From the NCBI RefSeq assembly GCF_018977255.1, contig NW_024704764.1:7130001-7194000 (forward strand): DNA of 64,000 bases, in the 5' to 3' direction. The stretch's first letter is position 1. Each line of letters begins with the position of its first letter. The notes under the pieces are model-generated. The model worked only from the letters and a program-made list of their open reading frames with translations. It did not search any database and was not told the DNA's origin. Shown here piece after piece: positions 9,645 through 14,949 of the stretch. The position numbers and the translations under genes were made by a program. The DNA comes from Callorhinchus milii (lineage: Eukaryota).

Positions 9645-12482
9645 TCAGTTGGCAGTTTTATTATGATAAGACCCAGAGAATATGCTCTTCACCTCAATGT
9701 GTTTAGAGAGATGGAGTATCCATCTGCCCTCATCATAGCACAAAAGCTCCCCTCCCTCCACAGGGGTATGAAAACTGGGCTGAGCTTTGCACGCTTCCAA
9801 CTGTAAAAACTCAAGCAAATCTCGTCCTGTCTGTACTGCCTTTATGTGAGGAGCGCATGCCAAAGTGATATGGGATCTTGAGCCAAGGGGTAGTTTCATT
9901 CCCTCTTTGTCATTGGACTCATTTTCGTCCGTTGGCCACAAGCAAAGCTGTTTTTCTGTCAGTACTACACGTGCCCCGACTGTTCGAGGTGTGATGAACA
10001 GGTCTGTGATTTTCAAATGAAAAGCCTTGGACAACTGTTCTTCAATGCCCTAAAACAAGAAAGGGAAGAGGGCGTGGAAAACAGTTATTTTTCAATGCAG
10101 GTCGGCAAACACTCTGTATTTCACGAACGCTCTATTTTGCCCAAACTTACTCTCTTTGCCCTCCCTGCGAGAAGGGAATCTCTTGCTGAGCAGCAATGAC
10201 TACCAAAACAACAACTTGTATTTATCTAGCGTTCTCCACGCGAGGAAGTATCTTGGAGTGCTTAACAGTGGCCGGAGTCTGACACCAGGGAGGGAGTAAT
10301 CGTAACGGTCAAAGAGGAAGGTCAACGGAAAGTTTTCAGGACAGGAAGGGAAAAAATGAACCCAAGATAATTCAAGACCTCCCTTTTTGATCGTGCTTAC
10401 GGCCACATCCACACTCCCTCTCGCACTGGTTCGGGGTCAGACTCCGCCACTGTCAAGTGCTCAGGGACGCTACCCCGTGTGAAGGGACGCTATGTAAGTA
10501 TAACTTGTCGTCATCACTGTTCCCTTCGAATCATTGTGATGGTGGGTGAGAAGGCTTTTCTATTTACCAACCTTTGTTTTGATGTACGTTTCGCAGTTTG
10601 GTTCTTGTCCAAAATTACAGAATTTTGTGGTGCAGTGCAATATACTTGGCTTCTTCTGGAAATAATCTTGCAAATTAAAGTTTTCTTTGGCATCTGAGTC
10701 GATATCTGTTCGGNAAAAAAACCACACATATTTACTTTCAAAGTGTTTCTTTTTTTCTCTCTTCTCTTCTTCCACAGTGTTAGGAGTTCGCCTTTCCTTA
10801 CACTCACCATTCACACAACACACCTCTCCAACGCCACACTCCCCCTCATAGTTCTGCTCCACGCCTCCGCAGGTCAAATTCAACATCTTCGTTCTCAGCT
10901 TTAAATCCCTCCACACCCTCAACTCACCTTCAACTACCCTTCCACGACTGTTTGTGGAACACTGCTGTGCGCAATTGGCTGCCGCGTTTCGCCCACAAAA
11001 TATGCAGTCAATTCACTTTACAGTATACTCTGTTTAGCACTTTGAGACGTCTCGAAGAAGCGATAAGGCACTGTATAGGATTACTTATCGTTACCTTTGC
11101 GACCTCCTACAATTCTACCCACCCACCCTCTCCCTTCACTCAGTGAACAATGTCCACCTTCATGCACCACCTGTCCTATCCATCCCAATATCGACGGGCG
11201 AACTTTCAATCAGTCTGTCCCCACCCTCTGGAACTCTATCCCGATATCTCTCCAACTCACTCCTTCCCTCCCAGAATTTGAATACAGTGCCTCTATCTCT
11301 AAGAGGTCACCTTTCCCCCCACCAACCACATTCTCTTTGGCTACCAAACCCCCAGCTCCAGTGCCCAGCCAGCAGGGTGAAGTGATTTGAGACTTCAATG
11401 AACGTCTCAACGACATGATAACATGCCGTATCAAATGCAAGGATTATTATTAATATGACCAGATATTACACCACAGAAACAGATCATTCAACCCATCAAC
11501 TGAGGTAAATGAATCATTGAACAATGGCAATGGGAAAATTGTTGGTTACTACGCTTTACAGTAAAATCCTGTGAAGCACTTCCTGAGGGTTTTTGACAGC
11601 GAAACAAAGCAATAAATATAATAAATCTTTGCATTTGATATAGCGCCTTATCACGGTATTGAAATGCAAGGATTATTATTAAATCTGTGCTGGTGTTTTT
11701 CTCTCAAGAGATTCAAACCTGGTTCTTTCCGGGTCTATGTGGCCATAACTGCTGAACATTGGACACAGAAAATGAGCCATACCTGGAGCTCAGATAAACC
11801 CAAAACAGAGCCATTCCATCATCTTAAGATCTTAACTGCCCTCACAACCCAATCACAAAAGCCTACATTTCACAAATTCTTCTAAAAATTCTCGTCGCTC
11901 AGCGAGTTGTTCCAGAAAATGCTCGCCGGTCTGGTCCAGCTGCTTCGCTGATACCCTCGTCAAGAACCAGCCAAAGTAATAGGGTATCAGAGGCAGCTCC
12001 AGGTGGTCCTTCATGGCCTCCAGCTGATCCTTGGATGCCTTTGGGTGGTTCTTACTGGCGAGAGCAGAGCATTGATTGCCACATTCATTGTTAGCCTGGA
12101 CGATGACCACAGTATAGCAGAACTCTTTGGCGGAATCAAAGAGATAATTCAAGCGTTTCCTCGTGTGATGGGTGTCGTCAACCACCACGACACCCTTCTC
12201 AGCTTTGAGCTCACGTTGAATCTCCTCATCCAGTTTCGCGTACCGCTCGTCGCTTCCCTCAGTGGAGCTCTCGAAGGGTGAGATCTGGTGCGATTCGGCG
12301 GAAAGGACAACGGATAGCGATTCATACTTTTTCAAAATGTTATTGGCGATGGTGGATTTGTCACTGCCTGGCAGGCCTCGCAGGATGAAGAGGACTTTGG
12401 AATCTTTGACTGCGCTGATGGTGGCAACATCTTCCAGGAACGGGTAAGACAACTTGGGTTTCGATTTACTCGCACCCATCAT
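9645..12482 (-). CDS. CNP: 2',3'-cyclic-nucleotide 3'-phosphodiesterase (CNPase or CNPase-like), 384 aa; exons 12482-11867, 10705-10572, 10049-9645
   Basis: N-terminal PNK-like domain (YPFLED...[33 protein letters not shown]). The 2H phosphoesterase domain has both catalytic HxT motifs ([14 protein letters not shown]). GT-AG introns have consistent phases (616+134+405 nt). Confidence 0.93.
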
Positions 12483-14949
12483 CCAGGATAGATTTTTTGT
12501 CTAAAAGAAATTGTTTTGTTAAAAAGAAAAGTCATCAATACTCTCACTCAACATTGATTTGAGTATCATATTCCTTTTAGGACAACGTTGGCAGTGCGTC
12601 TGTCTATGTAAAATATCCCTCCTTCTATCGACCTCATTTTCTCTTTCTCTCTCTCTCTCTCCCACCCTCCCTCAATCTCCATATTCCTCACACCCTCATT
12701 TGATCCAGCTCCATCCTTCCCCCTCTCTCACACAGTGCCTCCTCCCCTCTCTCGCTCTCTCTCTCAACAACAACAATTACATTTGTATAGCGCCTTTCAT
12801 GTCAGGAGGACATCCCGAAGCATTGAAACACAGTCTTCTTTCTTTCTCTCTCTCCCTCCCCCCACCCCCACACTTACCCTCTCTCTCCCTCTTTTTTCTA
12901 CTTCTCTCACATAGTCTCTCCCTCCTCTTTTTCGTTCTCTCTCTCTATCGCCCCCTCTCTCTCTCACCCTCCCCTCCCCCCCTCTCTCTCTCGCTCTCTC
13001 TTTCAGTGTTCCTCCCTCCCTCTTTCTTCCCTCCGGAAGTGAATTGCATGGGAGAAGAGTTACTGAAGGTCAACAATAATTAACACATTTACAATTGTGC
13101 GATGAAATTTGACCACGTCGGAACGGAAGACAAAAATTTGGGATCTGATCTGATATTTTTCTCCCTGGATTAAACTGTACAGCCTAATCGCTTTAAGCTC
13201 TACTCAAGGAATTCTTTTGAAGCTGCAGTTAGTGGTGGATCAGTACAAGTGAATTGTCGGGCTTCACAAACATCTTATGGCTGCAGGTTATTTTTTTGGC
13301 AGATGGAAATAATTAACAAAAGAAAATAGCTTTTTTTTTTAAACTTTCTGGCCTCACAGACAGTCTGCACACCTGCCCTCAAAGCATTATGCTGGCGGAA
13401 AACATTTACCAACCGAATAAAAGGAAGTGAAATTGTGTTATAAAAAGCGCGTGTGTGTGGGCGAAATGTGGGGGGGGGGGAGTGGGGAGGAGGAGCGTGG
13501 TGGAGCGTAAGGGGAAAAAAACAACGAGCAGAGGGAACAATGAGTGGTGGGGGGCGGTGGGGGAGAGAGGGGGATGGTGGAGAGAGGGGGGGAGGATTGA
13601 CGGAGGAGGGGGTTGTGGGGGAGAGTGACATTGTGGCTGTGGCAGGATCACAAGCAAATCAGAACTTTGTAAACCAGCTGTCGGGTCACTGAGTAATGTT
13701 GGCACAGCCTCTTTTGCCCAGTGTTGCTGACGACGGGTGGAAGACAAAGAGAATTAAAGGAATCAAACGCGAAACAATAACAACAACAACCAATTACATT
13801 TGTACAGCGCCTTTCACGTCAGGGGGCGACGTCCCTGGGCGCTGAACACTCAGGGAACCGCAACTGAGCTGATGGTTGCGATCAGGAGGGGTGGGAGGGT
13901 AGGGGTGGGAGGGTGACCGAAAGTACGGTCGAAGAGAAGGGTCTTGAGACGGGTCCTGAAGGAGGCAAGGGATGGGGCGAATAGAATTGACGGGGGTGAA
14001 AATTCTGAGATAGAATGATGAATTATAACACCAATTCCTACCTGTTTTAATTACTGTACCGCCAGTGATTGCACATCACGGCACAGTTTCCCTCCCTGCC
14101 CACAAATTAAGCATAGTAATAATAATAATAATTATAAGAATCCTTGCATTTGATACTACGCCCAGAAACTCTGAAACACTCTTCCTCTATCTCTCCGCCT
14201 TGCCCCTTCCTTCCCCGTCTTCAAGTCGCGCCTGAAGATCTTTCTCTTCGACCATGCCTTCTACGGTCACCTCCCCCTACTCCAACTCGATGCCGTGCTC
14301 CGCCACCGGCAAGCGCTCGACCCTGCGCCAGGAGGGGCGCGAAATAAATGCGCGAAATAAATGTTGCTGTTGCCGTTACAGTATTTCTTTTACATTAAAA
14401 TGAACCTCTAAACCTAACACAAAATCCTTGAAGACTTCGTCCGGGGAGGCGGGGAAGGGGATGGGGATGGGGGGAGGGAGAGAGAGAGAGAGAGAGAAAG
14501 ACAAGGAAAAAAAGCACCATATTATGACCAGAAAAAAAGTCAGTTGAAAAAATAAGTGTTGCTGGTAAGAAAGCAATATATATACACCACACACACACAC
14601 ACATATATATATATTTACATTTAAAAAAAAGCAGCTGTGAAAAACACACAGGGGTGGGAATTGAGCACAGGGCGACCCCACGTTATTGCAAACTCACAAA
14701 TGCAAGAAAAACACACACATAAAAAAGGGTTTAACTAAAAATGCAAACGAAAATGCTTTAGGATCAGCCTCACAGGGCTGTGGCAATTCGCGCAGAGCTA
14801 ATGCAATAGCTCCCCACACGTCTGCCCTTGTCCAAAATGGTTCTATTCCACTCCCTGTCCCATATGTTTCTCATTTTCTCTGCTTCTCAGCCCAAGAAAC
14901 TCACCAGTTTTAATGCTGAACGCAGCAGCATCGACTCTAGTGGACAATC

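Follow-up and report, generated by a model that had tools for sequence, protein, structure and literature searches.

CNP of the sampled cartilaginous fishes lacks a CaaX box and carries a conserved, predicted N-myristoylation start: analysis of a Callorhinchus milii locus

Known CNP anchors and the Callorhinchus gene

The mammalian enzyme 2',3'-cyclic nucleotide phosphodiesterase (CNP, or CNPase) joins a P-loop domain to a 2H phosphodiesterase domain (PF05881) with two HxT catalytic motifs (as described in PMC2814326). It occurs as a long form, CNP2, with a basic N-terminal extension and a short form, CNP1, that starts at an internal Met; CNP2 localizes to mitochondria (PMC2814326). Prenylation at the C-terminal CaaX box is treated as essential for membrane binding and process outgrowth, and unprenylated rat CNP (C397S) was diffuse and produced no process outgrowth (PMC2171497). 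Teleost RICH, a CNP with the same catalytic domain, also binds membranes via a prenylated C terminus (PMC10463786), and the teleost CNP proteins examined combine long acidic N termini with a CaaX box. Replacement of C-terminal prenylation by N-terminal myristoylation within one family has been described for Plasmodium Rab5B and Arabidopsis ARA6 (PMC3912013), which are GTPases unrelated to CNP. Here, we analyzed a window of 64,000 nucleotides from the elephant shark Callorhinchus milii (contig NW_024704764.1, positions 7,130,001 to 7,194,000; coordinates below are those of the window). By its sequence, a minus-strand gene of four exons in this window is the CNP ortholog of the species; its product has no CaaX box and has a predicted myristoylation-type start.

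The first large exon aligned over 203 residues at 100% identity with the UniRef entry for CNP from Callorhinchus milii (P0001, 399 residues); of the 390 residues compared, the four-exon model departed from P0001 at one (L178Q). An upstream exon encodes exactly the first 9 residues of P0001; its coding part begins at ATG 14931, and a GTGAGT donor follows 14905. The original prediction had placed the gene at 9645..12500; the exons within that extent stood, but this upstream coding exon, spliced on in 3 of 4 transcript runs, had been overlooked. The CNPase domain (PF05881) scored 26.7, 41.1 and 138.8 bits in three exon frames (Pfam cut-off, 25), and the N-terminal P-loop domain scored 34.6 bits as AAA_33 (cut-off, 27). 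Exon 2 matched AAA_33 (E 2.8e-08) and CNPase (E 4.6e-06), while exon 4 matched CNPase (E 2.8e-40) and the mouse enzyme (E 9e-30); goldfish RICH was matched with E 6.5e-23. Both H-x-(T/S) motifs were present (LHCTT, residues 243 to 247; SHITL, residues 324 to 328). An AlphaFold model with a mean predicted local distance difference test score (pLDDT) of 82, falling below 50 at residues 1 to 24 and 397 to 399, matched the mouse CNPase catalytic domain (E 2.9e-24; TM 0.90 by target). By domains and motifs, the protein is a predicted 2',3'-cyclic nucleotide phosphodiesterase, and it shares with the mammalian enzyme a long form with a basic extension and a predicted short form from an internal Met. 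It differs in its tail, which comprises 6 residues without a CaaX box, in having Gly instead of Ser after the Met of the short form, and in an Asp that replaces the mammalian Walker A Gly. The Lys-Gly pair of rat CNP that tubulin polymerization requires (K379/G380) is not kept; the aligned places hold Asn-Lys.

Conservation and transcript evidence for the two termini

Homolog searches scored 8000 candidates, of which the best 120 were listed. The matches listed contained 18 cartilaginous-fish CNPs (P0008 and those of 17 named species; we excluded P0005, a second model from Mobula that is chimeric). None of them had a CaaX box (0/18), and all carried M-G-x-x-x-S-K shortly before a conserved FPF motif; the start Met was located by this pattern, which no sequence failed. 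G2, S6 and K7 were each found in 18/18, while position 3 varied over 10 residue types and position 5 over 9; since the three residues are invariant and their neighbors vary freely, the motif is not a product of chance. The PROSITE myristoylation pattern matched 17 of the 18 starts, and residues 2 to 12 included 2 to 4 Lys/Arg. In an alignment of 15 of these sequences, the motif Met fell in the same column as the tetrapod CNP1 start (MSS, MSA, MST). Among bony-vertebrate CNPs listed, 181/182 ended in C-x-x-x (98/99 in the first search and 83/83 new rows of the second), the exception being a dog model whose C terminus is unrelated, and only one began with MG, the long isoform of a caecilian (1/182). 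These counts reflect shared descent and not independent events.

A gene tree was built on columns excluding both anchor motifs. It placed Callorhinchus CNP as sister to sharks and rays in a chondrichthyan clade (100/99) next to a bony clade (100/99), joined the two clades (99/97), and left the jawless fishes outside. The matches listed included one Callorhinchus CNP protein and, P0005 apart, one model per cartilaginous species. The original prediction had offered a divergent ortholog or a second paralog; this species-order tree and the single models decided in favor of the ortholog. Judged from protein sequences, the whole class of cartilaginous fishes, as sampled, has a CNP without a CaaX box but with a conserved myristoylation-type start.

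For the C terminus, transcript contigs from 4 of 14 runs were compared with the window: X2 and X4 (one study), X9 (another) and X6. None of the runs is on record as RNA, and they were treated as RNA because their GT-AG joints were spliced. X6 did not cover the exons and hence gave no evidence either way; X2, X4 and X9 lacked all three GT-AG introns (3/4 runs, two studies). X4 record 11 (2198 bases) comprised exons 2 to 4 and continued for 940 bases beyond the stop, covering 8705-10048 unspliced. Other contigs extended into the 3' untranslated region (UTR) as far as 9286 (X9 record 27) and 9226 (X2 record 4). Because a contig passes through the stop and on without splicing, we regard the absence of the CaaX box as real. 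No alternative letter was listed at the TGA stop (9647-9645), and P0001 has the same C terminus as the window model. Directly past the stop, no Cys-x-x-x-stop occurred in any of the three frames, and in-frame readthrough would add only TQ before the next stop. The spliced contigs and this frame check bear out the claim that a CaaX box is absent from the C terminus and from the other frames just past it. The net charge of chondrichthyan tails (0 to +2) is too low for the tail to serve as an anchor of its own.

A sequencing error at the stop was ruled out, as the contigs give no other letter there and relatives end alike. Between 3400 and 9644, 11 Cys-x-x-x-stop sites were found in any frame. 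When 6 donors were combined with 14 acceptors, acceptor 7707 alone yielded one of them in frame (CVSS-stop); this join, absent from the listed joints, uses a non-consensus donor and would delete the invariant Tyr393. The check in RNA that had been proposed for an alternative CaaX exon found none in the joints listed, beyond which there are 59 further weak joints and rare forms that contigs drop.

At the 5' end, all three covering runs joined 12500 to 14905, which places the upstream ATG on the mRNA. Of the three ATGs, the first (14931; T at -3, C at +4) and the second (12482; T at -3, A at +4) lie in weak contexts and the third (12479; A at -3, G at +4) in a strong one; the contexts of the latter two agree with those given originally. 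The acceptor AG was confirmed to end at 12501 with TKNLSW left in frame. The longer isoform that follows from it had been called possible, which is correct as to frame and understated, since it is the sole 5' form in the listed joints. Starts at 14931 and 12479 give forms of 399 and 383 residues, respectively. Because the upstream ATG exon is spliced on, two weak ATGs must be bypassed by ribosomes before Gly can become N-terminal. Reportedly, going by the title of a 1997 paper by O'Neill, CNP2 mRNA makes both CNP forms. The motif lies in the first 24 residues of the AlphaFold model, where pLDDT is below 50, and the features asked of an N-myristoylation site (G2, S/T6, K7 and a predicted accessible N terminus) are all present. 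The myristoylation consensus is GXXXS/T, with Lys7 important at the starts of Src-family proteins (PMC2133112). Through the upstream exon, the protein gains a basic extension of 16 residues (3 K/R, no D/E) with a hydrophobic moment of 0.71, equalled by 0.95% of shuffles. It resembles the mitochondrial signal of mammalian CNP2 and, on these sequence features, is likely to serve mitochondrial targeting.

Several observations were made alongside. The long isoform of the caecilian Rhinatrema bivittatum (P0270) has an MGQAQSKG start together with a CTII end and could bear both lipid signals. Three carpet-shark CNPs (P0017, P0018, P0019) end in a bare Cys (ESAGC, ESVGC) that is not a CaaX box. Mobula hypostoma has two models, P0004 and P0005; P0005, also without a CaaX box, carries a duplicated C-terminal piece in front, the result either of partial duplication in tandem or of an assembly artifact. 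In the 3' UTR, each of the three covering runs carries two bases after 9353 that the window lacks, which may point to an error in its assembly. Contig variants at 11995, 12120 and 12333 correspond to L178Q, a silent change and L65F; L178Q was present in two runs.

Membrane anchoring, its history and alternatives

Some anchor is expected in shark CNP, since unprenylated rat CNP is diffuse and inactive in outgrowth. From sequence, Callorhinchus CNP likely reaches membranes by a myristate on Gly2 of the predicted short isoform. Ribosomes would scan beyond 14931 and 12482, where the ATG contexts are weak, and start at 12479; Met would be removed, N-myristoyltransferase would acylate Gly2 of the 383-residue form, and the 2 to 4 nearby Lys/Arg would add electrostatic membrane binding. 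Starts at 14931 would instead yield the 399-residue form, whose acid-free basic extension would likely direct it to mitochondria, as happens with mammalian CNP2. Rab5B and ARA6 differ from this arrangement in being specialized paralogs whose second membrane signal is palmitoylation; in Callorhinchus CNP, the ortholog of a whole vertebrate class, lysines are the predicted second signal. A literature search, with subscription papers mostly outside its reach, returned nothing on myristoylation of CNP or on the termini of the shark protein, and the available parts of PMC7916940, PMC8060510 and PMC10792529 contain nothing on either subject.

To place the change in time, outgroups were compared. A CaaX box was found in 0/3 jawless fishes (lamprey P0136; hagfishes P0137 and P0267) and in 0/77 non-vertebrate homologs, most of which end at the last strand. 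The latter set derives from 87 near-complete sequences that were taken from 150 representatives and placed in a separate tree, 75 of them outside vertebrates, plus P0011 and P0043. The 58 unplaced new rows were fragments or further vertebrate copies; four of the fragments (P0222, P0250, P0257, P0265) end in C-x-x-x and, lacking both His motifs, were taken as truncated models. Because the outgroups also lack it, the CaaX box of bony vertebrates is likelier the derived state, and the most economical history is probably a single gain in bony vertebrates, on a stem where Gly2 would have been absent, rather than a loss in cartilaginous fishes. The locus had been described as a lipid-anchor swap; the missing CaaX box and the conserved myristoylation-type start stood, while the trait proved to be clade-wide and the swap itself lost ground to this polarity.

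At the other terminus, 31 of 68 non-vertebrates with complete-looking starts (9 were unusable) began with MG, compared to 35/701 internal Met, and 19/68 began with MGxxx[ST], compared to 11/701. Non-vertebrate CNP-like proteins such as Schistocerca P0011 share the two domains, the lack of a CaaX box and the frequent MG start with Callorhinchus CNP; they differ in longer, unalignable N termini, in a Cys near Gly2 in several cases, and in usually having no tail past the last strand. In P0148, P0157, P0169, P0199 and P0215, the Cys is at most a few residues away from Gly2, as in dual myristoyl-palmitoyl anchors.

A more far-reaching reading, at a probability of about 0.4, is that N-myristoylation was the ancestral anchor of the CNP family and was kept in cartilaginous fishes, while bony vertebrates gained the CaaX box and lost Gly2; shark mRNA would select between presequence and myristoyl anchor by start codon. 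Several findings weigh against the main explanation, in which the short form is myristoylated and the CaaX box is a late gain. Among the non-vertebrate starts, 37/68 are not MG. No clean motif is present in the jawless fishes (lamprey MASREV, Myxine MGEGDQ) and the non-vertebrate N termini do not align with the shark start, so that continuity between shark Gly2 and non-vertebrate MG is unproven. Every 5' joint among those listed takes in the upstream ATG exon. Finally, extensions of 7 other sharks and rays are borderline amphipathic (shuffle fractions 0.05 to 0.26) and two amniote CNP2 extensions showed no significance in the same test; amphipathicity therefore argues weakly for a mitochondrial signal.

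The same mechanism today could have the opposite history, with a CaaX box in the jawed-vertebrate ancestor and chondrichthyans that gained Gly2 myristoylation and then lost the box. We consider this unlikely: it requires a gain and a loss rather than one gain, no jawless-fish Cys stands at -4, and the non-vertebrate homologs, mostly ending at the last strand, have no CaaX box. It would, however, account for chondrichthyan tails that look like shortened bony ones (K..PTT.ES versus K.VPTQ.S), for the bare terminal Cys of three carpet sharks, for the Cys near the end of jawless-fish tails (lamprey TCP; hagfish CEKESF and CEEESS) and for the lack of a clean MG motif in the jawless fishes.

Decidedly improbable is a gene that makes mainly the extension-bearing form, mitochondrial or cytosolic, with MGxxxSK as an internal segment conserved for other reasons, e.g., as a processing or phosphorylation site. 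The upstream ATG exon in all three spliced contigs fits such a gene, as do the shark and ray database models, most of which begin upstream. Opposed to this are the strong context at the third ATG only, the alignment of its Met with the tetrapod CNP1 start, and the two forms that O'Neill's title reportedly assigns to CNP2 mRNA. Moreover, conservation falls precisely on G2, S6 and K7, the preference of N-myristoyltransferase (PMC2133112). We give hardly any weight to another CNP gene or splice form with a CaaX box that does the myelin job and leaves this locus as a paralog or minor form. DNAJC7 and ODAD4 are indeed missing from the neighbors identified, the homolog searches listed the best 120 of 8000 scored candidates, and the hypothetical join to acceptor 7707 would give CVSS-stop. 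However, the tree follows species order, no cartilaginous-fish CaaX protein is among the matches listed, no extra vertebrate clade appeared among the 87 representatives in the separate tree, and the 7707 join (1 of 14 acceptors against 6 donors) is absent from the listed joints and deletes Tyr393.

Further features of the window and implications

Coordinates of the CNP features in the window
Feature	Position	Strand	Evidence
Upstream coding exon part (MLLRSALKL)	14905..14931	-	P0001 match; joint 12500-14905 in X2, X4, X9
Exon 2: end of N-terminal extension, MGASKSK start, P-loop (PNK-like) domain, start of phosphodiesterase domain	11867..12500	-	
MGASKSK, predicted N-myristoylation motif from third ATG	12459..12479	-	Conservation, ATG context, tetrapod CNP1 start alignment
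Degenerate Walker A GLPGSDKST, Asp where relatives have Gly	12351..12377	-	Homolog comparison
Exon 3, first catalytic HxT motif LHCTT at 10640-10626	10572..10705	-	Pfam CNPase E 1.9e-10; contig joints
Exon 4 coding part: second HxT SHITL 9875-9861, tail HNKTAN, stop 9647-9645	9645..10049	-	
3' UTR, continuous with last coding exon; AATAAA at 9306, ATTAAA at 8716	8705..9644	-	

The Walker A motif reads GK in 188 of 204 vertebrate homologs and DK only in P0001, with 10 outside the pattern; contigs listed no alternative letter at the site. Mustelus P0030 and Scyliorhinus P0060 likewise have an altered motif, which suggests, at the sequence level, relaxed P-loop constraint in some cartilaginous fishes. 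Neighboring genes identified by domain in the window were FAM171, NAB, NAGLU and a CoaE-domain gene; as noted originally, DNAJC7 and ODAD4 were not among them. In the human genome, NAGLU and COASY are located roughly 0.6 Mb away from CNP. The NAB-family gene (NCD1 and NCD2 domains) stands between CNP and NAGLU at 26726-27544 (minus strand), with a further exon likely at 21091-21399. In humans, neither NAB1 nor NAB2 shares a chromosome with CNP and NAGLU, and the gene in the window may be a third NAB paralog lost in mammals.

The CNP described here is a genuine variant of a familiar myelin enzyme and extends across the class as sampled. Its sequence comparison indicates that the textbook CNP anchor is probably a later addition of bony vertebrates, placing the origin of the CaaX box later than the divergence of bony from cartilaginous fishes. 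Myllykoski et al. are said to have reported in 2016, in a work on CNP evolution, that the segments for membrane attachment were acquired in the course of evolution, and the late gain of the CaaX box may already be in print there. Annotation of shark CNP by mammalian similarity may assign the wrong lipid. A class of myelinated vertebrates with a CNP that lacks a CaaX box constitutes a natural experiment on whether the enzyme needs the prenyl group and its tail or any lipid anchor. If the ancestral-anchor reading is true, myelin would first have arisen with a myristoylated CNP.

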